A DNA stretch of 64,000 nucleotides from contig CAZXHT010000002.1 in NCBI GenBank assembly GCA_964640665.1, positions 38,567 to 102,566 on the forward strand, read 5' to 3'. A program made the position numbers and the translations under genes. Positions 6,442 through 57,046 of this stretch are shown in pieces (the first letter of the stretch is position 1; each line of letters opens with the position of its first letter). This DNA comes from an uncultured Myxococcales bacterium. Lineage in GTDB: Bacteria; Myxococcota; B64-G9. The notes beneath the pieces are model-generated. The model had not been told where the DNA came from, searched no databases, and saw only the letters and a list, made by a program, of their open reading frames with translations.

Positions 6442-8940
<2,499 letters not shown>

Positions 8941-8950
8941 CGGCAGAACC

Positions 8951-9949
8951 ATGAAAAGAACAATTTTTCGCTCGGTCGGGGGATATGTTCCGGACAAGGT
9001 GGTGACCAACGACGATCTGTCTAGCATTATGGAGACAAGCGACGAATGGATAGTAGAGCGTACGGGAATCAGGCAAAGACACTGGGTGGAAGAAAGCACC
9101 GGATCGAGCGACTTGGCTGTTCCCGCTTCTTATGAAGCGCTGGAAAGGGCCGGTATAGACGTCGGTGATATCGACTGCATCGTGCTCGCGACCCTCTCTC
9201 CGGACCACACCTTTCCCGGAACGGCCTGTTTTTTACAGCACAAGCTTGGGCTCGGGGGCATCGCCGCGCTGGACGTCAGGAACCAGTGCTCGGGTTTCAT
9301 CTACGGCCTTAGTATCGCTGACGCCTGGGTGCGCTGTGGCCAGTACAAATGCGTCCTGTTGGTTGGAACGGAGGTTCATTCGACCGGCATCGACAAGACC
9401 ACGCGCGGTCGGGATATCGCCTGCCTCTTCGGAGACGGGGCCGGGGCCGTAATTCTCACTCCCACAGACGATCAGAAAAGGGGTATCCTGTCCACACATC
9501 TGCACGCCGACGGAAAGTACGCCCGCTCGCTGTGGATCGAGGCGCCGGGATCATGCTTTTATCCGTTGCGCATCAACGAGCAAATGCTGGAGGAAGGGCG
9601 GCACTTTCCAAAGATGAAGGGTCGGCACGTATTCACCCATGCAATCAAGCGCATGCCGGAAGTCATAGGCGAGGCCTTATCAGAAAACGGTTTCAAACCG
9701 AGTGACGTCGACCTGTTCGTTCCACATCAGGCAAATCAGAGGATTACCGAAGCAGTAGCAAAGGTAATGGGTTTCGGATCAGAGCAGGTGTACTCGAATA
9801 TCGAGAGATACGGAAACACAACCGCCGCCAGCATACCGCTGTGTCTCAAGGATGCCGAGAGAGAGGGTCGCCTGAAGAAGGGAGACCTGCTCCTGCTGGC
9901 ATCTTTCGGAGCGGGTTTCACCTGGGCCAGCGCCCTTGTCAAATGGTAA
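8951..9949 (+). CDS. fabH: 3-oxoacyl-ACP synthase III (KAS III)
   Basis: 332 aa; active-site Cys context NQCSGF, HQANQRI and GNTTAASIPL motifs. Confidence 0.9.
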   Translation: MKRTIFRSVGGYVPDKVVTNDDLSSIMETSDEWIVERTGIRQRHWVEESTGSSDLAVPASYEALERAGIDVGDIDCIVLATLSPDHTFPGTACFLQHKLGLGGIAALDVRNQCSGFIYGLSIADAWVRCGQYKCVLLVGTEVHSTGIDKTTRGRDIACLFGDGAGAVILTPTDDQKRGILSTHLHADGKYARSLWIEAPGSCFYPLRINEQMLEEGRHFPKMKGRHVFTHAIKRMPEVIGEALSENGFKPSDVDLFVPHQANQRITEAVAKVMGFGSEQVYSNIERYGNTTAASIPLCLKDAEREGRLKKGDLLLLASFGAGFTWASALVKW

Positions 9950-45569: not shown

Positions 45570-46496
45570 TCAGCAGAGGAAATCGAGAATCCAGCGCAAG
45601 ACTCCCAGCATGATCAATGCCAGGCCCTCGCGGCGCGAGATTTTCCAGCCGGTGCGCATGAAAAAAACCACCAGCAGGCACATCCCCAAAAGCATGTAAA
45701 CCGAAGAAAGCGAGTGGGTGTCGACCTTGAGGTTGCGAATCAACCCGGCCAGACCCAGCACTCCCAACAGGTTGAACAGGTCGCTGCCGATCAGGTTGCC
45801 CAGCGACATTCCATGCATTCCCTTGGCTGCGGCCGTCAAGGAAGTTGCCAGTTCGGGCGCCGAGGTGCCGGCTGCGACTATGGTGACCGCGATCAGCCAC
45901 TCGGATAGCCCCAGTAAGCGAGCCAGTTCGGAGGCCGATTCCACCAACGAAGCGCCGCCGCCCACCACGGTGGCGATTCCCAGAAGCAGCAGGAAGGGAT
46001 CCTTCCAGGTCGCCGTGCCCTTGGGAACTTCAGTTGTCGATCCCTTTTTCTGGAAGAAAAGCAAGGCGATGTAACCGATCAAGCCGCAAAAAAGAATGGC
46101 ACCTTCCAGGTGTGACAGGTGATAGTCCGAAAGCATCAAGACGATCGCCAGAGAGGTTGCCACCAGCAAGCTGCCGTCGCGAAATACCGAGATGCGTTGC
46201 ACCGGGAGAGCCTTAAACAGGGCGCAGCCGCCGAGGATGAATCCCAGGTTGAAGATGTTGGAACCGACTATGTTACCGACCGAGATGTCGGCCTTGCCGG
46301 TTACGGCCGCCGAAATGGTCACCGCGAACTCGGGGGCCGAGGTGCCGAAGGCGACAATGGTCAACCCGATCACAAGATCCGATATGTTAAAGTGACGACC
46401 TATGCGCGCGGCACTTTCGACCAGCCAGTCGGCGCCCTTCCACAGGAGCAGGATCGAGGCGACAAGCAGCGCCAGGTTTAGGATGAAGTGTCCCAT
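45570..46496 (-). CDS. Ca2+/cation antiporter (CaCA/YrbG family)
   Basis: Two alpha-repeat GTSAPE motifs (GTSAPEFAVT, GTSAPELATS), 308 aa polytopic. Confidence 0.85.
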   Translation of the reverse strand: MGHFILNLALLVASILLLWKGADWLVESAARIGRHFNISDLVIGLTIVAFGTSAPEFAVTISAAVTGKADISVGNIVGSNIFNLGFILGGCALFKALPVQRISVFRDGSLLVATSLAIVLMLSDYHLSHLEGAILFCGLIGYIALLFFQKKGSTTEVPKGTATWKDPFLLLLGIATVVGGGASLVESASELARLLGLSEWLIAVTIVAAGTSAPELATSLTAAAKGMHGMSLGNLIGSDLFNLLGVLGLAGLIRNLKVDTHSLSSVYMLLGMCLLVVFFMRTGWKISRREGLALIMLGVLRWILDFLC

Positions 46497-46542
46497 TGAG
46501 TTCTGTTCGCGCGCCGCTTGCGGAACGGCAGCCGGCCGGGCC

Positions 46543-47670
46543 TCACTCGGGCTTTCCTAAAACAGCCTCGAAGAGATTCTCGTCCATCAAGGCACCCTTG
46601 GCTATACGCCTGCGATACTCGATGAAATCGATCGTGTCCCGGCCGGTCTGTTTGCGGGTGGCGAAGGCGTTGAAGCCCAGGAAGGCCTCCCCCATCATGT
46701 TGGCATCCAGCCAGTGTCGGTTGAAAACCTTGGCCTGGTCCCAGAAGAACCTCTTCTTGGCGCGCACCGAATCGATTGACATCTGCAGGCATCCGGGGAA
46801 GAGGTTGGTCAGGTGCCAGATCATGCCGTCCACCGCCTCGTCCAATAGTGAAAAATCAAACTGACAACTTTTGGCAAGCTCACGGGCCGCCTTGGCCTCG
46901 GCCCCGCTCTTCATCTCGCCGTAGACGATCTCTCCGTCATTGATGTAGTTGTCGGTCATAACGGCCGGGTTACGGATGAAGCGGCCGTCCTTTTTGAGCA
47001 CCGGCGCCACCTTGGTGACCAGCCCCTTGACCTTCATCTTGTATGCAGACCACAGCTCGCACGAGATGCAGTTCCACATGGCGTCTTCCATGGTCAAGAA
47101 CCAGGGTAAAAAGTCGCTCGAACCGCCCACGGGAGCCGATCCGTGCCGGGTACCGGCCTGTCCGAAGATTGCCGTATCAGCGGCCACCGCCAGATCGCAG
47201 GCCATCCCGATCTCCTGGCCGCCTGCCACTCGCATCCCGTTGACCCTGCAGATGACCGGCTTCTTGCAATCGAGAATGGAATCGACCATGCCGTTGAACA
47301 GGTCCATGTACTCGCCGTACTCATGGGGTCGCTTGGAGTAGTATTGCGCGTACTCTACTGTGTTGCCGCCGGAGCAAAAGGCCCGCTCTCCCGCCCCGGT
47401 GAAGACGACCGCCACCACGCTCCGATCACACGAGGCTTCCTTGAAACCGGCGATGACGCCCTTAACCATCTCGGTGGTGTAAGAGTTGTATTGCTCGGGG
47501 TTGTTGAGAGTGATCCGGGCGACGAAGAGATCGGCCTGTTTTTGCCCCTGCGGATCCGCCAGCGGAATCTTCTCGTACATGGTGCAGGGCGGTTCCTTGC
47601 CCCAGTATTCGCCCTTGAACAAACCGTGGTCTTTCAACTCGTCATCCCTGGTCAACCAATCGAGCGCCAT
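46543..47670 (-). CDS. Crotonase-fold enoyl-CoA hydratase/hydrolase (BamA/Oah-like)
   Basis: FTGAGERAFCSGGN crotonase oxyanion motif; 376 aa from ATG 47670 with AAGGAGGAAAC RBS; ORF track N-terminal 251 aa Arg/Ser-rich extension judged spurious. Confidence 0.75.
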   Translation of the reverse strand: MALDWLTRDDELKDHGLFKGEYWGKEPPCTMYEKIPLADPQGQKQADLFVARITLNNPEQYNSYTTEMVKGVIAGFKEASCDRSVVAVVFTGAGERAFCSGGNTVEYAQYYSKRPHEYGEYMDLFNGMVDSILDCKKPVICRVNGMRVAGGQEIGMACDLAVAADTAIFGQAGTRHGSAPVGGSSDFLPWFLTMEDAMWNCISCELWSAYKMKVKGLVTKVAPVLKKDGRFIRNPAVMTDNYINDGEIVYGEMKSGAEAKAARELAKSCQFDFSLLDEAVDGMIWHLTNLFPGCLQMSIDSVRAKKRFFWDQAKVFNRHWLDANMMGEAFLGFNAFATRKQTGRDTIDFIEYRRRIAKGALMDENLFEAVLGKPE

Positions 47671-47818
47671 GTTTCCTCCTTCGTAAGAGACACCATCATG
47701 TAGCCCAAAGAGCCGATCATTGCAAGAGCGGGAGCCGTCCAAAATTTTCCAAGCGAAAATCACGCTTGGCCTAAATCTTTTCTTTTTAACCCCGCCGATT
47801 GGTGATAAGCTCTCGGAC

Positions 47819-50800
47819 ATGCTGCGAGGATGTGGGTGTTTACATCCGGTCCGATGGACCGGTTGCAGAACGTTACTGTTCTTGCACCTGGTGTCTTGCG
47901 CGAATCCGGTCTTGGCCGGGACGCGGGAGGCGGGGCCGCTTATCGATTTGCCCGGCAAATTGACTTCGGCGGCCATGGAGATCATCGACGGAGAACTCGA
48001 AGAACTTGGCAAGGATCCCGACTGGGATGCCCTGCACGCCTTCCTGGCCTCGCAGCCCGCTTCGCCCGTGGCCCGGTACGCGCGGGCCTCCGCTGATTTG
48101 AAACGCTGCGCCGTTTGGGACGGGGAACGCGGCCTCGAGACGCTCGCGGCCTTGCGCAAGGAAGCCGCCCAGCGGGGTGATCGGGTGCTGGCCGCACGGC
48201 TGCTTCTGGCCATCGGCCGCGGGCAACTCGCCCTGCGACACAACGCCCGGGCGCTGTCCTCCCTCGAGACCGCGGCAGCCGAGCTGCGCAGGTTGGGAGA
48301 TTCCCGGGGGCTGGTAGAGGCGCTTTTCCAACTCAGCAGCGGTCTGATCAACAATTCCCGCCGGCCGCGGGACGCCTTGAAATACATCAACGAGTTGCAG
48401 GTGCGGGCCGCGCGCCTCGACATGCGCGATTATGAACAGTTAGCCGCGCGTCTCTACGATGAATGGCGCAAGGGAATAGACGAAGTTGACGACTACTTCG
48501 GCCGGGCCCGTAACCGCTTGCAGTACTTCCCGCCGGCCCTCGGCATTTCCGAAGACGCGGACCTGGTGGCTTTTACTAACGGTGTGCTGGTCATGAACGG
48601 AGACACCGACGATCAGGTAGTGTCCGCCCGTCCCGAATTCGTGTCCTTCGACGGCCTGTTTACCCGCAAGTTGAAGCTGCCGGGCGACTCGCTGCAAATA
48701 CGCGGATCGCTGGTGGACGATCGCGGCCGGCTGTGGGCCGCAACCAACCGTGGCCTGTACCGCTACGACGGGGAGGGTTTCGTACACCTGTACAATCCCG
48801 CTCTTGCAGACGAGGAGGGCAACGATCTCGCAAGACAGGTAGCACGCGAGCGCGGCCGGATCTCGACTATGGAAGTTGCCTTATCTTCAAATATCGTAAA
48901 CGAGATAAAACAGGGCCCGGATGGTCGTTTCTATCTGGCAACAGCATCCGGGGCGTCTGTTTGTGATCGTGGCTTCAAGAAATTTCAGTATTTCACGCCG
49001 AAAAACGCTCCGCTGCCCGCGTCTGTCGAACGCATCGCCAAGGCTGCGGACGGATCGTTAGTGATTGCCTGGAGAGACGCCTACGCAGTGCGCCTGCCCG
49101 GGGGCGCCTGGAAAAGACGCGCCTTCGAGTTTCCCAAGGCCGCCGGCCGCCCGCACGGTAAGCTTTTTGGTCTTCTGGTCGACTCATCCGGGCACCCCTG
49201 GGTGCACGGTCTGGGGGGCGGACAGGAACTCTCCGGAACACGAGTTGTGCGCTATGTTGATCGACGCTTTTCGGCCATGACCCGCAACGTCAACCACGTG
49301 CTCAAGGCGAGTGATGGCGCCTATTGGTTCGCTTCAACCGATGGTCTCTGTCGCCAATCGGGTGCGCATTGCGACACGCTCAACGCCGGCCGCTGGATGC
49401 CGGCCGAGTGGTCGCTGGATCTGTTCGAGGGGCCGCCAGGAAACGTGTGGGTTTCTGTCTACCAGGGGGGGCTGATTCGCATCATGCCTCCCAACTACCG
49501 GCACTACGGGCTTGCCGAGGGTTTTCGCCAGCCGGTCAACGAAACAATCCGCGAACTTGCGGGTTACCTGTATTTCACAAACGGAGAGGGGTTGACGCGA
49601 CTGGATCCCGCCAGCGGCCGCATAGACAACTTCGCCTCCGAGGCAGAGGGCATACCCTTAGGAGAGCTGAAGATATCGGAGAAGTTGAGTGATGGGCGGC
49701 TGGCCCTGGCCGGTCCGGACATACTGGCGCAAAAGGCGATCGTCCTCTTCGATGGGCGGCATGGCCGCCTGGTGGACGAACACAATGGATTGCCGGCCGA
49801 AAGCCTGATCTCCTTTTGCCAGGACGAGGCCGGCAAGCTCGAGGTCGCCTACGGCACGGGTTTGTGGCAACTCGACCTGCAGACGCTGCGTGCTCGGCCG
49901 GACCCCGACTGGCGAGCGATCGAGGGCATACAGATTGTGGATCTTGCCTGCGCCGCCGACGGATCCGCCTGGGTGTTGACCCCTGATGCCGTCTATCGAC
50001 GGGATAGCAACGGCGTGCGACACATCGATCTCGGGGGTATTGGTTTGCACGGCAAGCCGCGCCAACTGATTGCGTCGGTGCGGGCCGGGGTCTTCGTTTT
50101 CGGACAGCGCCAGATATTGAACCGCCGAAATGACGCCTGGAAACAGATACCGGTCGATGCCGACAAATTCGACTTCCGCGTCCGCGACGTGGTCGAAGAC
50201 GATCGCGGCCTGCTCTACTTCGCCACCGAAAGCGGCGTTTTCGCCTTCAACGGTGAGAACTGGACCCGCCTGAGCGCGCGTGACGGATTGGTTTCCAGGA
50301 CAGCTTTCCAAATGTTGGCGCGCGGGGACGGGTTGTGGATATCCGGAGACGGAGGCGTCACTTGCTGGAACTGGCCTGAACAGCAACCGCCGGAGACGTT
50401 TCTGTTGTTCAGAGGCGATGCTTTCTTCGCCGATCCCGACGGGAGAGCGCTTCGCTTCCGGGCTTCAAACGGAATAGAAAAGGAAGGTTGGGTGCAGCTA
50501 CGCGGGACGGCCGGCCTGTTCGAGCTGCCCGAAAAGCAGGCCGGCTCGTTTTTAACGCCTGCCAGACGAACGGGTCTCCTGTTGACTGATAACGCAGGTG
50601 CAGGCGATTCGACGGCCTCCGGGATGAAGGTAGTAAGGTCGAACAGGCTTGAGTTTTTCGCTTCGGCCGGTGTGCCTTTCATGGACGATACACCCGATGA
50701 GTTCTCGTACCACTACCGGGTCGACGCGGGTGCCTGGTTTCCCGCCCGGGGAAGGAAGATTGTTGTCGGCGACCTGAAAGATGGAGTGCACCGGGTGGAG

Positions 50801-53800
50801 ATCCGCGCCACGGATCCACGCCTGGTTTCGGATCCCACACCGGCTCGATGGTCCTTCATGGTCGAGACGCCGATGTCCCCCTGGCTGCCGGCCGCCTTCG
50901 GTCTTTCGGCCGGCTTGCTTTTGTTCTTTGCGCGCCGACGCTGGATGTGGTTGCTGCAACGCTTGATGCACAGGCACTTCCATCCTCTCGACCCGGCATC
51001 ATTCGCCCCGCAGCGGCCGGCCAGCGGGCCCGATTTCATTGGTCGTGGGGAGCAGTTGGAAACTCTTTTGCGCGTGGCCGCGGATACCGGGGGGGTGGCC
51101 GTGGCATGGGGGGAGAGAGGAACAGGAAAACACTCGTTCATGCTGCGGCTCGCCGCGCAGCTGCGCCAGCGACACGTACATGTCGTCGAGATGGATCTGG
51201 CCGTTACGACTGCCGGCGGCGACGTCGCCAACCTGGTTGGCAGCCTGGGCCGCACCTTGCTGGACGTTTTAGAGTCAGACGGAGTTCGGATCGATTTGGC
51301 GCCGGCCATGGCAGGGGAATCGCTGTTATCCTTGCCGGGCAGCCTTGGCGGGGAGTCACCCGCCAAGGACATGCCGTCTCCACCCGGATCGTCGGCCTCG
51401 GGTGATAATCCGTTTGAGGTATTGAGTCGGACATTGCGGCATCTTGATCAGCAGGCGCCGGGTGAACGAGTGGCCTTCCTGATTGACAATGCCGAGGTGC
51501 TCGGCGTGGCCCTCGATTCGGACGCCGGCTATGGCTCTTACTTGTTTCCCTTTATGCGCTCGCTGGTTCAGGAACGTTCCTGTGTAACCATGGTGCTGGC
51601 CATCGAGGGCCGCTGGTTCAACCTTTCGCGGATTTACAGGCAGCTGTTTGCCTTCGCATCTCCGCTGGCCATCGATCGTCTCTCGCGGGAAGAAAGCAGC
51701 CGCCTGCTTACGGGCAGGCTCAAGAATCAGGCAATCGTATCCGAGCGGGATCTCGGGCGGCTTGTGGATCTGGCCGGCGGACATCCTTTCTTGCTGCAGC
51801 AAATTGGCAAACATCTGGTTGATGAAATGAACCGCCGGCGGACCAACGTGTGCTCGGGCAAGCTCGTCAAGGGGATATCGACCGTCCTGGTCGATGAAGT
51901 CGACAGCCAGCTGCAACGGATGTTTTTCGATCTTTCGCGCGAGGAAAAACTCGTGGTGACGGCCTTGTGCACAGGCGACCGTCGCGCAAGCAAGCTGGAC
52001 ACGATTGCGGCCCGTCTCGCGGAGGCCGGCGGCAAGTTGCTGTACGAGGAAATCCGCCGGGCCGTTTTGTCGCTCGCCAAGGACGGCACGCTCTTGAAAG
52101 ACGAGGATTACTTCTCCCTGCAAGGTGACCTGTATCGCAGCTGGGTGCATGCGCACCACTCTTTAGCCTCTGTGTTGGAGGAGTCGCATGACTACGTGGG
52201 CCACTACCAGCTCGTCGAAAAGCTGGGCTCCGGCGGCATGGGAGTAGTTTACAAGGCACGCAATCTGGTAACCGGTGCCACGGTGGCACTCAAACTGCTG
52301 CGGGCCGAGCTGTCGGAAAAGAAGCGTTCCCGGCGCCGTTTTCTGCGCGAAGCCAGACTGGGAAAGAGCATTCGGCACCCCAATATAGTGCGCATTCTCG
52401 ATTACGGAGAGCAGGCCGGACGACTTTACCTGGCCATGGAGTTCGTGGACGGCAAGACCTTGACCCTCTGGACTCGCAAGGCCGGCGGCCTGTCGGCACA
52501 GACAGTGTTGGAAATAGGCCGCCACCTGTTGTCGGCGCTGGTTGCCGTCCACGAGGTGGGGATCGTGCACCGTGACGTGAAAAGCGACAATGTCATGGTG
52601 ATAAGCGCGAAGGGCAACTCTATAAAGTTGATGGACTTCGGCCTGGCGGTGGGCAAGGACGTCTCTCGCATGACCCGCGCCGGCTCGTTGCTGGGCACCG
52701 TCGCCTACATGTCGCCGGAGCAGGCGAGGGGCAAGGTGGTTGACGCCCGTTCGGATCTCTATTCACTGGGGGTGGTACTGTATGAACTTTGTGCCGGCGC
52801 ACCGCCTTTTGCCGGCCCCGATGCCGCGGTGCTGCATTCTGTGATATACGATCTGCTCCCGCCGCTTGATGAGCGGGTTAAAAATATTCCTGCTGAGCTT
52901 TCGGCCTTCATCGGCAGGCTGCTCGCCAAGAATACCGACCAGCGTCCATCCAGTGCCCGCGAAGCTCTCGAGCAGCTCAACGGTCTAGCCGAACGACTTG
53001 GATCTTCCGGAGAAAACCTGTTCATGGGCGAGGCGGCGGCTGATGGCCGAACCGATCGGGGCACGACAAGTGGCATTACATCCGGGACAGAAGTGACCTC
53101 ACACGCACTGGAAACGCTCAAGTCACAGAGCATCTTGTTGTCTTCGCTGTCGACGGCCACAAAGGAATCTATCTCCTCGCTGGCGGACGCCACCCACGAT
53201 GCCGCCCGGCTGTTGCTATATCGCATCTCGGCCGATGTGGCTCGTGGCTCGATCGAAGGCGGCGTCTTGAGAGATTGCCTCGAACAGGTTTGCGACACGC
53301 TCGAGGCGAACCGCGGCCTGGTGGCCCTGGGGAGCGATGATGGAAAGTTCGAATGTGTAGCGTCCTTCAACCGTGATGTAGAACAGATTGAGAAGCTTCC
53401 GGTCTTGTTCTCATTGTTTCACCAGTGTGTAGGCAAGCAGAGCGGTCTCCTGTACACGGCCCCGCATGGTTCTGTCGAGGATGGAATGGGCACCGCCGTT
53501 TTCGCACCGCTCTGGGCCGCGGACAAGATCCTTGGCGCTTTCATGGTTGAACGTAGCGGAGCCGAGGCGCGTCCATTCGATTTTCATAGCCTGGAGTTGA
53601 TGGCAGGCGTCGGCTACCTGTTGGGACTCGGACTGGAACGCGAGAGGCTGTACAAACAGGTGCTGAATCAGGAACGCCTGGCCGCGGTGGGACACATGCT
53701 GGCCGGGGTGGCGCATGATATGCGTTCTCCAATGGCTGTCATTTCCGGCTACGCAGAGTTAATTACGTTTGAAAAAGACTCTTCCAATCGGGAGAAGAAC

Positions 53801-54340
53801 TGCGCCGTTATCGTGCGCCAGGTGGGAGAGATGAACCACATGATCGGCAATCTGCTGGCTTACGTTCGCGGGGACACGCAACTCAATCCCGCCCAAATCC
53901 GGGCAGAAGAACTCGCCGTGGAGATCGAGGAAACCTTCCGGCCGCAATGCGAGCCGCGGGGCATCGAGTTGAACATCAGCGCCGGGGAGGGGCCGGCGCG
54001 GGTCGATGTCTCCCGAACCAAGCGCATCATCTACAACCTGGGCAAAAACGCCGTGGAGGCCCTCGGTGAATCCGGCAAATTGGAGATACGCCTTGAGAGC
54101 CGGGACAACGGACTCGAAATCAGGATCCGCGACAACGGGCCTGGAATCCCAACCGAGGTGCGTGAGCATATGTTCGACCCGTTCTTTACAAGCGGCAAGA
54201 AAGGAGGAACCGGTCTTGGCCTGGCGATCGTGAGTCGCTTCATACACGACCAGGCCGGGTCGATATCCACACACTGTGGGGAAGGTGGCGGCACGACCAT
54301 GATTGTCCACATCCCCGATGTAACCAGCCGTAAAAGCTAA
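47819..54340 (+). CDS. Multidomain sensor kinase: TPR-like + beta-propeller/Y_Y_Y - TM - P-loop ATPase - Ser/Thr protein kinase - GAF - histidine kinase (HisKA+HATPase_c)
   Basis: Reg_prop/Y_Y_Y repeats (~48.7-50.86 kb), TM helix (~50.87-50.94 kb), Walker A GERGTGKHS (~51.11 kb), STK motifs GSGGMGVVYKA / HRDVKSDN / DFGLA / SPE (~52.2-53.0 kb), GAF (~53.2-53.65 kb), H-box AHDMRSP and G2 box GTGLGLAIV (~53.7-54.3 kb); start set at ATG 47819 (track start 47720 is upstream extension). Confidence 0.85.
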   Translation: MLRGCGCLHPVRWTGCRTLLFLHLVSCANPVLAGTREAGPLIDLPGKLTSAAMEIIDGELEELGKDPDWDALHAFLASQPASPVARYARASADLKRCAVWDGERGLETLAALRKEAAQRGDRVLAARLLLAIGRGQLALRHNARALSSLETAAAELRRLGDSRGLVEALFQLSSGLINNSRRPRDALKYINELQVRAARLDMRDYEQLAARLYDEWRKGIDEVDDYFGRARNRLQYFPPALGISEDADLVAFTNGVLVMNGDTDDQVVSARPEFVSFDGLFTRKLKLPGDSLQIRGSLVDDRGRLWAATNRGLYRYDGEGFVHLYNPALADEEGNDLARQVARERGRISTMEVALSSNIVNEIKQGPDGRFYLATASGASVCDRGFKKFQYFTPKNAPLPASVERIAKAADGSLVIAWRDAYAVRLPGGAWKRRAFEFPKAAGRPHGKLFGLLVDSSGHPWVHGLGGGQELSGTRVVRYVDRRFSAMTRNVNHVLKASDGAYWFASTDGLCRQSGAHCDTLNAGRWMPAEWSLDLFEGPPGNVWVSVYQGGLIRIMPPNYRHYGLAEGFRQPVNETIRELAGYLYFTNGEGLTRLDPASGRIDNFASEAEGIPLGELKISEKLSDGRLALAGPDILAQKAIVLFDGRHGRLVDEHNGLPAESLISFCQDEAGKLEVAYGTGLWQLDLQTLRARPDPDWRAIEGIQIVDLACAADGSAWVLTPDAVYRRDSNGVRHIDLGGIGLHGKPRQLIASVRAGVFVFGQRQILNRRNDAWKQIPVDADKFDFRVRDVVEDDRGLLYFATESGVFAFNGENWTRLSARDGLVSRTAFQMLARGDGLWISGDGGVTCWNWPEQQPPETFLLFRGDAFFADPDGRALRFRASNGIEKEGWVQLRGTAGLFELPEKQAGSFLTPARRTGLLLTDNAGAGDSTASGMKVVRSNRLEFFASAGVPFMDDTPDEFSYHYRVDAGAWFPARGRKIVVGDLKDGVHRVEIRATDPRLVSDPTPARWSFMVETPMSPWLPAAFGLSAGLLLFFARRRWMWLLQRLMHRHFHPLDPASFAPQRPASGPDFIGRGEQLETLLRVAADTGGVAVAWGERGTGKHSFMLRLAAQLRQRHVHVVEMDLAVTTAGGDVANLVGSLGRTLLDVLESDGVRIDLAPAMAGESLLSLPGSLGGESPAKDMPSPPGSSASGDNPFEVLSRTLRHLDQQAPGERVAFLIDNAEVLGVALDSDAGYGSYLFPFMRSLVQERSCVTMVLAIEGRWFNLSRIYRQLFAFASPLAIDRLSREESSRLLTGRLKNQAIVSERDLGRLVDLAGGHPFLLQQIGKHLVDEMNRRRTNVCSGKLVKGISTVLVDEVDSQLQRMFFDLSREEKLVVTALCTGDRRASKLDTIAARLAEAGGKLLYEEIRRAVLSLAKDGTLLKDEDYFSLQGDLYRSWVHAHHSLASVLEESHDYVGHYQLVEKLGSGGMGVVYKARNLVTGATVALKLLRAELSEKKRSRRRFLREARLGKSIRHPNIVRILDYGEQAGRLYLAMEFVDGKTLTLWTRKAGGLSAQTVLEIGRHLLSALVAVHEVGIVHRDVKSDNVMVISAKGNSIKLMDFGLAVGKDVSRMTRAGSLLGTVAYMSPEQARGKVVDARSDLYSLGVVLYELCAGAPPFAGPDAAVLHSVIYDLLPPLDERVKNIPAELSAFIGRLLAKNTDQRPSSAREALEQLNGLAERLGSSGENLFMGEAAADGRTDRGTTSGITSGTEVTSHALETLKSQSILLSSLSTATKESISSLADATHDAARLLLYRISADVARGSIEGGVLRDCLEQVCDTLEANRGLVALGSDDGKFECVASFNRDVEQIEKLPVLFSLFHQCVGKQSGLLYTAPHGSVEDGMGTAVFAPLWAADKILGAFMVERSGAEARPFDFHSLELMAGVGYLLGLGLERERLYKQVLNQERLAAVGHMLAGVAHDMRSPMAVISGYAELITFEKDSSNREKNCAVIVRQVGEMNHMIGNLLAYVRGDTQLNPAQIRAEELAVEIEETFRPQCEPRGIELNISAGEGPARVDVSRTKRIIYNLGKNAVEALGESGKLEIRLESRDNGLEIRIRDNGPGIPTEVREHMFDPFFTSGKKGGTGLGLAIVSRFIHDQAGSISTHCGEGGGTTMIVHIPDVTSRKS

Positions 54341-54448
54341 AGGTTCCAAGTACAGGCCTCGAGATTTTGACAAGTCGGCCATGCTGTGCTAAACAGCTTG
54401 CGCTCGGGTTTGTAAGCGGCCATCGGTGCAGTATGGCCGGATACTACC

Positions 54449-55225
54449 TTGAAAGAACAAGGTATTGCCAATATGCGCAACGTATATTTCGACATCGACG
54501 ACATGACCAAGGAAATCGAGGCGCTGCAGACCAAGAAAAAGAAGGACTCACACGCGTTCCAGGAAAAGTTCGAAGTTTCCTGGATCTATCATGAAAATGC
54601 GCTCGAGGGCACCGTGTTGGACATCTTCGACTTGAAGGCGGCGCTCGATCACGCCGCGTTGGAGGACGGTGTGCTGATTCCCGTCTACCAGCGCATCCGC
54701 AACCACAAGAATACCATAGAAAAGATCAAAAACAGCGCCACTGGCAACTCGCGCATGCCGACACTCTCGTTCATCAAGGAAGTGCACCAAGTGCTGAGCT
54801 ACGGACTTGACGAGCGGCCGGGGGGGCAGTACCGTAAAGATGTTCCCATCCATCGTAGTTATTACCATGAGATCATGGCTCCCTCGCGCATCTCATATGC
54901 CATGAACAAGCTTGTCAGGGATCTCAAGACCAAGGAATTCAAGCAACTCCATCCACTTCAGCAGGCGGCCGAGGTGCATTTTCGCCTGATGCACATCTTT
55001 CCTTTCTCCCGGGAATGCGGCAAGCTGGCGCGCCTGATCATGAACTTTTTCGTAATTCGCGCGGGCTACCTGCCGATCATAATCCCCGCCGTGGAAAGGC
55101 AACATTACTACGAAGCCTTACGCGTGGGTCCCAAGGTGGTTCACGATCTGATCGTCAGCTGCATGGAACAGACGATCAATCTCTCGCTGCGCTTCTTCGA
55201 TGGCGGCACCAAAGAGATCTGGTAA
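54449..55225 (+). CDS. Fic/DOC-family protein with degenerate active-site motif
   Basis: Fic fold-like region AAEVHFRLMHIFPFSRECGKLARLIMNFFVIRAGY aligns to HPFx(D/E)GNGRxxR but with His->Phe, Asp->Arg, Asn->Cys substitutions. Confidence 0.6.
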   Translation: MKEQGIANMRNVYFDIDDMTKEIEALQTKKKKDSHAFQEKFEVSWIYHENALEGTVLDIFDLKAALDHAALEDGVLIPVYQRIRNHKNTIEKIKNSATGNSRMPTLSFIKEVHQVLSYGLDERPGGQYRKDVPIHRSYYHEIMAPSRISYAMNKLVRDLKTKEFKQLHPLQQAAEVHFRLMHIFPFSRECGKLARLIMNFFVIRAGYLPIIIPAVERQHYYEALRVGPKVVHDLIVSCMEQTINLSLRFFDGGTKEIW

Positions 55226-55228
55226 GGC

Positions 55229-57046
55229 TCAAGGTCCTCCGGAGAATTGTCGAACGGCCTGTTGAAACATCTTCATGACGGCCGGATCGAGGCGGCCGTC
55301 GAACTTGATGTTGTGAAATCCTTTCATTTTCTTGAGCATTGCCAGAAGGTTGTTCAAGTCCATCAGCTTGAGCTTGCCGAGATCCTCGTCGGCGTGACTA
55401 TCCTGCAGCCAGCGCTTGAACATCTTCTTGACTTTTACGGGCTTTCCCGAACCACGCACGAAAGCAGCTTGCAGATCGCCCGGGGTGGCTTGCTTGAATG
55501 ACAATTTGCGGGTGTAGGCCCGCATGCACTTGAGAAAGGTCTTTTGACCCAACGCTCGGCGCAGGAAGTGCAGAAACAGGGCCCCCTTGCCGTAAACCAA
55601 TCCCGCATACTGCAATTGGTTATCGAAGTCCTTGACCTGACGGTCGACCGCGCCGTCACTGCCGCCGAAAGCCCGATGAAGCTGGTAGGGCAAGGCCAGC
55701 TCCATCTGGAGCTGACGCGTGGCCGCCTGGCTGCCATGTTTTTTCTCGAAGTACAGCACCGCAGCATAGTTAGCCGGCGACTCGTCCAGAAAAGGGTGAC
55801 GGATCGAGTCGGAACCCACCAGGGCATGAAACCACTGGTGGGCGATCTCGTGGGCCAGGACGAACTCCTCGATGCCGGTTTTCTTCATCAGGCCGGCCAT
55901 CATGTCCCCCATGGGTCCCGCGGCACGCGGACCGGCCACGGCGATCGCTATTGTCACCAGTCCGGGATACTCCATTCCTCCGGCCCCGCCGACCAGTGGC
56001 GCGTAGGCGACGTCGAGTTCGGCGTAGGGGTAGGGGCCGAACATACGAGAATAGATTTTCACGGCGCTAACGGCGCGCGCGAGAAGCACCTCTGCCTCGC
56101 TCTCCTTCTCTTGCAGAACGAAGGCGCGCAGGCGCAACCCACCGGACATCTTCTCCCGGACGACATAGCGGGTCGAGACCTGCAGGGCAAAGTCGCGCAC
56201 AGCCGTGCCCATTAGAAAGACGTCTTTCTTGGCGGCGGCACCGGGGCCCAGGGGCTGCTCCCCGATTTGGATGCCCGAGGAGGCCACTCGCGCCGTTTTG
56301 GACAGGCGCAGCTTCACCAGGTAGTTGGCCACTTCGAAGTTTGCCAGGTCCCCCATTCCGGGCGGCGCCTCGGCGTCCCAGCCCGAATCCAGCCGCGCGG
56401 GCAAGATGGGATAGAAGTAGCCCAGGTTGAAGACACCACGACTACGGCCGTAAGTGCCGTACCCCTCCCGACCCTGCTTTCCCATCAACTCGGCCAGGAC
56501 ATTGCCTATCTGTGCGCCGGCATCCGCATGTATGCTGGGGACCACTGCCTTGCAGGTGATTCCCAGAAGCACACGGGAATTCGCGGGCAGGGGTATGGCC
56601 AGGGAGATGCGCATGGCGGTCGGGTTGATCCACTCGAATTCGGCCGGGGCCCCGTTGATGGTGACCGCCGAGATCTCGAGATTGCGCGCCTTGCCCTTTG
56701 TGAGCCAGGCGACGTTGGGGTAGGTGCGGAAAACCAGGTCGGGCAAGGGCTCGCCGGTGGTGTTCTTGTAGTTGACCTGCTCGTGGATATCGATTGTTCC
56801 CAGCACGGTGTTGAGTTCCATGTCGATCTGGTAAAGCGGCAAGTCGGATAGCGAGGCCACCCCGACCCTGGCCGCGGTATTCTTGCGGTACGCCCGTGAC
56901 AGTCCGCGCAGGAAGGGCTTCGAGTCATAGTCGCCGGGCGCGTTTTCGGCACCGCTTGCGGCCGATGCGCACAGCAAGCAGGCGACGACGATACAGCCAA
57001 TGCGAGCGTGCGGCTTTATGAAGATCCTGCCCGATTGAGAGACCAT
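55229..57046 (-). CDS. Secreted M1-family (gluzincin) metallopeptidase
   Basis: Signal peptide; HEIAHQWFH zincin motif with Glu ~18 residues downstream (LDESPANY); 605 aa. Confidence 0.7.
   Translation of the reverse strand: MVSQSGRIFIKPHARIGCIVVACLLCASAASGAENAPGDYDSKPFLRGLSRAYRKNTAARVGVASLSDLPLYQIDMELNTVLGTIDIHEQVNYKNTTGEPLPDLVFRTYPNVAWLTKGKARNLEISAVTINGAPAEFEWINPTAMRISLAIPLPANSRVLLGITCKAVVPSIHADAGAQIGNVLAELMGKQGREGYGTYGRSRGVFNLGYFYPILPARLDSGWDAEAPPGMGDLANFEVANYLVKLRLSKTARVASSGIQIGEQPLGPGAAAKKDVFLMGTAVRDFALQVSTRYVVREKMSGGLRLRAFVLQEKESEAEVLLARAVSAVKIYSRMFGPYPYAELDVAYAPLVGGAGGMEYPGLVTIAIAVAGPRAAGPMGDMMAGLMKKTGIEEFVLAHEIAHQWFHALVGSDSIRHPFLDESPANYAAVLYFEKKHGSQAATRQLQMELALPYQLHRAFGGSDGAVDRQVKDFDNQLQYAGLVYGKGALFLHFLRRALGQKTFLKCMRAYTRKLSFKQATPGDLQAAFVRGSGKPVKVKKMFKRWLQDSHADEDLGKLKLMDLNNLLAMLKKMKGFHNIKFDGRLDPAVMKMFQQAVRQFSGGP

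Follow-up and report, generated by a model that had tools for sequence, protein, structure and literature searches.

Locus and fold of the encoded protein

The stretch analysed here, called the window, comprises 64,000 nucleotides (nt) of contig CAZXHT010000002.1 from an uncultured Myxococcales bacterium. It contains, downstream of a gene for a giant multidomain kinase and convergent with a gene for an M1-family peptidase, a gene for a Fic protein with a strongly altered active-site motif (features and coordinates in Table 1). In the literature, the defining feature of Fic proteins is a catalytic histidine that does not vary, and it is this residue, among others, that the present protein lacks. 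The open reading frame (ORF) called mechanically at this position (54449-55225, + strand) starts at a TTG codon and encodes 258 residues. As the close homologues all begin with MRTVYFDIDD, the true start is probably the ATG at 54473, giving a protein of 250 residues; residue numbers below count from this ATG unless marked otherwise. No second Fic gene, canonical or degenerate, was found within the window.

The protein scores 47.6 bits with the Pfam Fic profile (PF02661), for which the gathering cut-off is 24, and its residues 105-201 correspond to profile positions 3-92 of 93. Among the sequences of the PDB, its best match is human FICD (phmmer, E=1e-18). Modelling with AlphaFold2 from 48 sequences gave a structure with a mean predicted local distance difference test score (pLDDT) of 87.9 and a predicted template modelling score (pTM) of 0.87. 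In a Foldseek comparison, this model is most similar to structures of FICD (TM score 0.82-0.89, root-mean-square deviation 2.0-3.4 Å, probability 1.00), followed by Bacteroides BT_2513 and C. elegans Fic-1 as the next-best structures. Judged by this confident model, the protein is a genuine Fic-fold member of the Fic/Doc (Fido) superfamily, with the all-helical architecture in which a flap lies between the N-terminal helices and the helix-loop-helix of the active site.

A degenerate active-site loop

Positions 54992-55033 (+ strand) translate as HIFPFSRECGKLAR, and the last 12 codons of this stretch specify the loop FPFSRECGKLAR, which is placed by HMMER on HPFIDGNGRTSR of FICD with no gap across the active site. 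The ungapped pairing extends further in the phmmer comparison with PDB sequences, where IHPFIDGNGRTSRLLMN of FICD is paired with IFPFSRECGKLARLIMN. Relative to FICD, His363 is replaced by Phe, Asp367 by Arg, the Gly-Asn pair by Glu-Cys, and the first arginine (R1) by Lys, while the second glycine and the second arginine (R2) of the loop are retained. A previous sequence-only reading of this DNA had described the Fic signature as degenerate, with replacement of the His by Phe, of the acidic residue by Arg and of Asn by Cys. All three replacements are confirmed at the exactly aligned position; the list omitted the exchanges of Gly for Glu and of R1 for Lys, and therefore slightly understated the degeneration.

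An intact His-containing motif elsewhere in the protein, which the same reading had named as the finding that would overturn it, appears neither in the alignment with FICD, nor in the Pfam match, nor in the structural match. The signature of competent AMP-transferases, HxFx(D/E)GN(G/K)RxxR with its invariant His, is not present in the aligned segment. A histidine located two residues upstream (HIFPF) was considered as a substitute and rejected, as this position is occupied by T, N, R, S, Q, A or E in relatives. In the FICD enzyme, the role of general base falls to His363, Mg is bound by Asp367, and the inhibitory Glu234 pairs with Arg374 (PMC6826200). Since the equivalents of both the general base and the Mg-binding acidic residue are gone, canonical AMPylation or phosphocholination by this protein is very unlikely as far as can be read from the alignments, which supports the earlier suggestion that these activities are probably lost.

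Inhibitory helix and flap

Two further elements of the Fic active site can be recognized in the protein. The N-terminal segment that aligns to the inhibitory helix of FICD retains the inhibitory Glu (E45) and the adjacent Gly (G46), with a conservation in the family of 0.85 and 0.99, respectively. The Ser/Thr of the inhibitory motif (S/T)xxxE(G/N) is replaced by Glu or Asp (ENALEG versus TVAIEG in FICD), and the preceding H40 is conserved in the degenerate family only (0.95). Both E45 and R187, the predicted partners of the Glu-R2 salt bridge according to the alignment, are present and conserved.

The flap of Fic proteins is a target-docking hairpin, the normal site for target peptides. In the present family it is characterized by the signature YR(K/R)(D/E)xP(I/L/V)HRxY(F/Y)H(E/D)I, within which P125, H127, R128 and Y130 are conserved in the degenerate family only, and it is longer by two residues than the flap of FICD (an insertion in the HMMER alignment). 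The confidence of the model is reduced in this region (pLDDT ~69 for residues 131-140 in the numbering of the 258-residue form).

A group comparison with canonical relatives distinguishes residues that were lost, kept and gained. Lost are S41 (the Ser/Thr of the inhibitory motif), N47, H176, D180, G181, N182 and R184. Conserved in the degenerate family and the canonical group alike are E45-G46, R121, A165, H169, P177-F178, G183, R187 (R2), L188, N191, G198, R209 and Y212. Residues S36, H40, L44, V48, P125, H127, R128, Y130, P137, I140 and Q210 are conserved in the degenerate family alone, and these newly conserved residues cluster in the flap and beside the inhibitory helix. Read from this comparison, the general base, the Mg ligand and the first Arg are absent and the anion hole is partly dismantled through loss of its Gly-Asn, while the Glu and Arg of the inhibitory pair are retained, as are N191, R209 and Y212 of the pocket core.

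A conserved family in Myxococcota

A first search identified 45 close homologues, from Myxococcota or from 'Deltaproteobacteria' metagenome bins where the source was named, with the consensus IFPFDxxTGKVARL in the loop. The loop in the window and in its two closest relatives is even farther from the family consensus, as Cys replaces the family Ser/Thr and Ser-Arg-Glu is found at family-variable positions (D-x-x in the consensus of the close homologues). In a scan of one genome per species, relatives were found in at least 568 genomes. The best 80 of these relatives are all from Myxococcota (Myxococcales and Polyangiales bins, some bins being labelled Bdellovibrionales), and include the cultivated Anaeromyxobacter oryzae and A. 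oryzisoli. Their loci are numbered from L001 onward and, together with the window, make up the 81 loci compared below. Phe or Tyr occupies the His position in all 80 of the best loci, and three segments are conserved throughout this set: (I/L)(Y/F)H(E/D)xALEG, YR(K/R)(D/E)xP(I/L/V)HRxY(F/Y)H(E/D)I and (F/Y)P(F/Y/W)xxx(S/T)G(K/R)xxR. The relatives are named 'Fic family protein' or 'hypothetical protein' in databases throughout.

An exhaustive profile search against 1.84 billion cluster representatives (50%-identity clusters) gave 527 matches with E<1e-30, a count that takes in canonical Fic proteins, which are present already within the top 150. In these top 150 representatives the His position is filled by Phe (75), Tyr (35), Trp (3) or His (28), i.e. 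by an aromatic Phe, Tyr or Trp in 113 of the 150, and canonical HPF(I/V)DGNGRT(A/S)R proteins enter the list only from about 1e-49 downward. In a midpoint-rooted neighbour-joining tree, for which the motif, inhibitory-helix and flap columns were masked, all 26 canonical sequences fall in one clade, apart from the Myxococcota family; this tree carries no bootstrap and is indicative only. The only two sequences without the catalytic His that group with canonical Fic proteins are P0046 and P0047 (Flavobacterium sp. and relatives, 349 residues), Bacteroidota proteins that combine a helix-turn-helix domain (PF01381/PF13560) with a Fic domain and that carry YPFTNANGKVSR. They apparently represent an independent loss of this residue.

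The family is under strong purifying selection, as comparison of the Fic gene with that of each of its two closest relatives gives ratios of non-synonymous to synonymous substitution rates (dN/dS) of 0.033 and 0.094 (Nei-Gojobori method).

Some members of the family are considerably longer than the protein in the window. Several Polyangiales-type proteins, i.e. P0089 (Polyangium jinanense WP_272423020), P0091, P0103, P0110, P0090 and P0077, have N-terminal extensions of 120-440 residues, which are Lys/Ala/Pro-rich and of low complexity, resemble the tails of histone H1 and in places include charged coiled-coil segments. A search for Pfam domains in the N-terminal extensions of long family members found none; the Lys/Ala/Pro-rich composition may point to an association with nucleic acids or other polyanions. 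In P0106 (788 residues), YjeF_N and Carb_kinase domains for NAD(P)HX repair are fused to a C-terminal pseudo-Fic domain, which could be a true fusion or a gene-calling artefact.

Table 1. Features of the window, and the upstream AAA+ genes of other loci (coordinates of the latter refer to the respective locus)
Feature	Position	Strand	Remarks
Enoyl-CoA hydratase/crotonase-family gene	46543-47670	-	Divergent from the kinase gene; conserved start MALDWL at 47670
Giant multidomain kinase gene	47720-54340	+	Up to 2206 residues; regulator-propeller repeats, AAA_16 (STAND-like NTPase), Ser/Thr kinase, GAF, HisKA, HATPase (Pfam)
Kinase-Fic intergenic region	54341-54472	+	Conserved in L001 and in the kinase-less L002 (three-way alignment)
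Coding sequence of degenerate FICD-like (class II type) Fic protein	54473-55225	+	250 residues from ATG 54473
Inhibitory-helix-like segment HENALEG	54590-54610	+	Residues 40-46; aligns to FICD HTVAIEG
Remodelled flap YRKDVPIHRSYYHEI	54830-54874	+	Residues 120-134
Degenerate active-site loop FPFSRECGKLAR	54998-55033	+	Residues 176-187; the stretch quoted in the sequence-only reading, within 54992-55033
M1-family peptidase gene	55229-57046	-	Convergent with the Fic gene; Pfam Peptidase_M1
AAA+ ATPase gene in L003-L005, L007, L008, L010, L012, L013, L017, L018, L021, L054	e.g. L004 8548-9888		Gene ends 100-580 nt upstream of Fic

The adjacent kinase gene

The true start of the giant kinase is probably the ATG at 47819 or a later codon, not the TTG at 47720. 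Its stop codon lies on the same strand as the Fic gene, 108 nt from the TTG and 132 nt from the likely ATG of the latter, in good agreement with the 109 bp given in the sequence-only reading. On the basis of this spacing, a functional link between the Fic protein and this hybrid of Ser/Thr kinase and histidine kinase had been suggested, and conservation of their co-occurrence had been proposed as a check. A tblastn comparison of four kinase segments with the 80 loci revealed full-length kinase homology beside the Fic gene only in L001, which is 84% identical to the window at the DNA level; including the window, the arrangement thus occurs in 2 of 81 loci. Other Ser/Thr-kinase matches in the 80 loci were discarded, being unrelated genes 4-8 kb away and mostly on the opposite strand. 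The 78 loci beyond L001 and L002 have other neighbours.

Locus L002 is the most informative in this respect. It encodes a Fic protein that is 94% identical to that of the window, has flanks with 94-96% DNA identity, and is collinear with the window on both sides (crotonase gene, Fic gene, M1 peptidase gene and a gene for an AMP-dependent ligase), with the ORF of the crotonase gene ending 247 nt upstream of the Fic gene. About 6.5 kb are missing: the window aligns to L002 over 46001-47771 and 54285-56000, and the absent segment corresponds approximately to 47802-54286. The junction keeps the last ~18 codons of the kinase gene as well as the whole 132-nt intergenic region, and is situated at a GGTG/GTGG microhomology. 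The Fic gene of L002 is intact, with a dN/dS of 0.09. This genome has therefore lost the kinase by deletion, while the Fic gene remained intact and under selection afterwards. With adjacency in so few loci and a kinase that can be deleted while Fic is kept, the suggested link to the kinase is not supported, and co-occurrence is not conserved among the 81 loci. The more general idea of a scaffolding or regulatory role, also put forward in the sequence-only reading, is plausible, but not with respect to the adjacent kinase.

A consensus scan of the intergenic region accepted no promoter and found no terminator. By eye, a putative promoter-like element can be recognized, consisting of TTGACA (54367-54372), a 17-nt spacer and TGc-TAAACA (54390-54395), which is conserved in all three genomes (window, L001 and L002). 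It is probable that the Fic gene is transcribed from a promoter of its own and functions independently of the kinase. As no terminator was found and the TTGACA/TAAACA element was not accepted as a promoter, transcription in this genome could start at a dedicated promoter or could result from read-through out of the kinase gene. At the other end, the stop codons of the Fic and the convergent M1 peptidase genes are only 3 nt apart (55226-55231), which implies that any terminator of either gene must lie inside the other.

Gene context in other loci

All-against-all clustering of the flanking ORFs yielded no neighbour that is conserved throughout the family. The largest cluster other than Fic itself was dismissed as noise, arising from the antisense strand of the Fic gene, and all others are confined to particular clades. 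The sole clade-conserved neighbour of the Fic gene of the window is the M1 peptidase gene, found in 10 loci (tblastn: L001-L005, L007, L009, L010, L012, L013). The mechanical ORF of the crotonase-family gene on the far side of the kinase is over-extended to 48423.

The usual gene order in the clade of the window is a sugar ATP-binding cassette (ABC) transporter, an AAA+ ATPase of 446 residues, Fic and the convergent M1 peptidase. The AAA+ gene is found directly upstream of Fic in 12 of the 81 loci, which belong to two divergent clades with Fic proteins that are only ~40% identical; in L017 it lies between the IlvE-like gene and Fic, and it is absent from the 64-kb window. The AAA+ protein, highly conserved with 58-96% identity between clades, combines a classical AAA+ domain with an N-terminus of winged-helix-like character, and shows similarity of a generic kind only, to Cdc48/proteasome-type AAA proteins. 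This ATPase is the strongest candidate ancestral neighbour, and a candidate for the ancestral partner, of the Fic protein.

Two other arrangements recur. In the Anaeromyxobacter clade the order is IlvE-like aminotransferase, Fic, endonuclease IV and a DHH-type protein. About 20 Polyangiales-type loci (a subset of L030-L079) encode a BamA-like protein, a small protein, a HAMP-HisKA-HATPase sensor kinase, a TlpA/redoxin-like protein and the pseudo-Fic protein, followed by a convergent ThiE gene; the upstream genes through pseudo-Fic are located on one strand with short gaps (in L033, for example, 7433-9268, 9052-9810 and Fic from ~9908). The contexts of the family are stable chromosomal ones with housekeeping genes, and not islands, toxin-antitoxin pairs or defence loci.

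Functional interpretation

We propose, with a probability of roughly one in two, that the protein is a non-AMPylating FICD-like pseudoenzyme of a Myxococcota-specific branch, which acts by binding and independently of the giant kinase. According to this proposal, the Myxococcota branch of FICD-like (class II) Fic proteins would have lost the AMP-transfer machinery, yet would have been maintained by strong purifying selection. With the canonical AMPylation mechanism presumably gone, the remodelled flap would engage a partner in combination with the residual phosphate-binding loop (G183-K184, and R187 paired with E45). Candidates for such a partner would be proteins as well as phosphorylated or nucleotidylated ligands, but not the adjacent giant kinase. 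A precedent is provided by the FIC domain of Bartonella BepC: its motif is non-canonical, enzymatic activity has not been detected, and it acts by binding GEF-H1 (PMC8401265).

Several observations weigh against a pure binding function. No binding partner or ligand turned up, and no neighbour is conserved family-wide among the 81 loci. The newly conserved flap residues H127, R128 and H132, together with H40, would fit a new catalytic site equally well. The retained inhibitory Glu is hard to explain when there is nothing to inhibit; it may be structural, or catalytic as in deAMPylation by FICD. Finally, some degenerate Fic proteins are active, e.g. the toxic Fic2 of Campylobacter fetus, which keeps its His (PMC5651007).

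These points lead to the main rival explanation, a repurposed enzyme in which H40, H127, R128 and H132 form a new catalytic site with the retained E45, K184 and R187, for instance for hydrolysis of a phosphodiester-linked modification or for another phosphoryl transfer. We consider this clearly less probable than binding, but it carries real weight. The near-invariant, family-specific His and Arg residues lie in the flap and by the inhibitory helix, elements that border the active site in Fic structures, and the purifying selection is very strong. Moreover, both E45 and R187 are retained, and deAMPylation by FICD depends on Glu234, the counterpart of E45. Other reactions, among them phosphocholination and phosphorylation, are catalysed by known Fic families whose motifs are altered (PMC8401265). 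In contrast, there is no equivalent here of His363, which FICD needs for deAMPylation as well, the acidic Mg-binding position varies within the family, the anion hole has lost its Gly-Asn, and the confidence of the flap model is only ~69.

Improbable in our view is a function of the pseudo-Fic protein as an accessory of the adjacent giant Ser/Thr-histidine kinase, either as a modulator or as a substrate trap. The genes lie 108-132 nt apart on one strand, without a terminator-like site between them, and L001 has the same arrangement; also, a HAMP histidine kinase is encoded two genes upstream (kinase, redoxin, Fic) in the ~20 loci of another clade, so that sensor kinases are found near the family twice. 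However, these two kinases have unrelated architectures, kinases are very abundant in Myxococcota, and occasional proximity is expected given this abundance. The adjacency in just 2 of 81 loci, the kinase-less L002 with its selected Fic gene and conserved intergenic region, and the inferred older context in the clade of the window, with an upstream AAA+ ATPase and no kinase, already largely refute such a role. Even more improbable is a toxin-antitoxin or anti-phage defence module. FicTA modules include many of the Fic proteins of bacteria (PMC8401265), and the PADLOC models PDC-S04 and SoFic match the protein (E=6e-17 to 6e-10), but these matches reflect generic Fic-domain similarity and are no better than the match to FICD. 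Adjacent to the gene there is no small antitoxin ORF, its neighbours being the kinase of 2206 residues and the convergent M1 peptidase; the inhibitory helix is present in cis, and the catalytic His required for toxicity is absent. In addition, the genes occupy one syntenic site in essentially all genomes of a clade, with stable clade-wide synteny to IlvE-like aminotransferase, endonuclease IV, ThiE or M1 peptidase genes and no mobile or island context. The loss of multiple catalytic residues could finally be taken as a sign of a decaying, non-functional relic. This explanation has a negligible likelihood and can be regarded as excluded because the ORF is intact, dN/dS is low (0.03-0.09), and the replacement motif and the new conserved motifs are common to hundreds of species; the confident structure model also speaks against decay.

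With respect to the preferred pseudoenzyme and its main rival, one might speculate, as a rather doubtful extension, that the family has a rebuilt functional site centred on the flap (PxHRxY(F/Y)H(E/D)I, with H40) and the Glu-Arg pair, either for new chemistry or as a reader or regulator of nucleotidylated or phosphorylated proteins. The target might be found in proteostasis: a classical AAA+ ATPase is the neighbour inferred to be the older one, and FICD, the closest active relative, regulates an Hsp70.

The family is of wider interest in that a phylum-wide, strongly selected FICD-like branch, present in hundreds of Myxococcota species, has replaced the defining His together with most of the nucleotide- and Mg-binding loop. 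It offers a test case for what a Fic fold does without catalysis, and for the purpose of the inhibitory Glu and the flap when there is no AMPylation left to regulate. As the hosts include cultivated species (Anaeromyxobacter oryzae, Polyangium jinanense), the family is experimentally accessible. For annotation, genes of this family that are called 'Fic family protein' should not be presumed to encode AMPylases, and the Fic gene of the window should not be assigned to the pathway of the neighbouring kinase.

Comparison with known systems

A literature search on degenerate or pseudo-Fic proteins and on Fic proteins in Myxococcus gave no description of this family within the searchable library, and within that literature the family appears to be undescribed. 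A genome-wide survey of Fic/Doc proteins from 2015 distinguishes five motif groups, none of which matches (F/Y)PFxxx(S/T)GKxxR (PMC4454073). The Doc clade D2 of that survey, with the motif Qx[F/Y]x[D/E][G/V]NKR, resembles the present family as a conserved Fido clade in which the His is systematically replaced, and it has been argued to be functional and not dead (Khater and Mohanty 2015, PMC4454073). It differs in being a Doc branch without a flap, in which the replacement is Gln and the other motif residues ([D/E], N, K, R) persist. The Doc toxins themselves have the motif HxFx(D/N)(A/G)NKRxxR and no flap, whereas here this motif is absent and a conserved flap segment is present. Class I FicTA modules have an adjacent small antitoxin gene that provides the inhibitory helix in trans; no such ORF is found here, and in other clades the neighbours are housekeeping genes.

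The FIC domains of BepC and other Bartonella effector proteins (Beps) resemble the present family in that their Fic fold bears a degenerate signature motif. Beps originate from a FicTA module, carry OB and BID domains and are secreted as effectors that target the host, whereas this family is single-domain, chromosomal and phylum-wide. Furthermore, all Beps keep PFxxGN and the crystallised BepC keeps H146 (PMC8401265), while the family described here has neither the His nor the Gly-Asn. AvrB of Pseudomonas syringae also has a Fido fold with a flap and no signature motif, and uses a Fic-like mode of peptide binding (PMC4454073). It is, however, a type III effector without detectable sequence similarity, in contrast to the present family, which is clearly homologous to FICD.

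Closest in both sequence and structure are FICD/HYPE and its class II relatives (PDB 4U04, 6I7G-L; C. elegans Fic-1, 5JJ6; Bacteroides BT_2513, 3CUC). Unlike FICD, the family has Phe or Tyr in place of His363, an unconserved residue at the position of Asp367, Lys in place of R1, and x-(Ser/Thr) in place of Gly-Asn (Glu-Cys in this gene). It also differs in the Glu or Asp at the inhibitory Ser/Thr and in the flap, which is two residues longer and carries PxHRxY(F/Y)H(E/D)I, and the protein encoded here is without the TPR domains and the membrane anchor of FICD. The two share the same order of helices, the N-terminal inhibitory helix with its Glu-Gly, the Pro-Phe, second Gly and R2 of the active-site loop, and the core residues N191, R209 and Y212.

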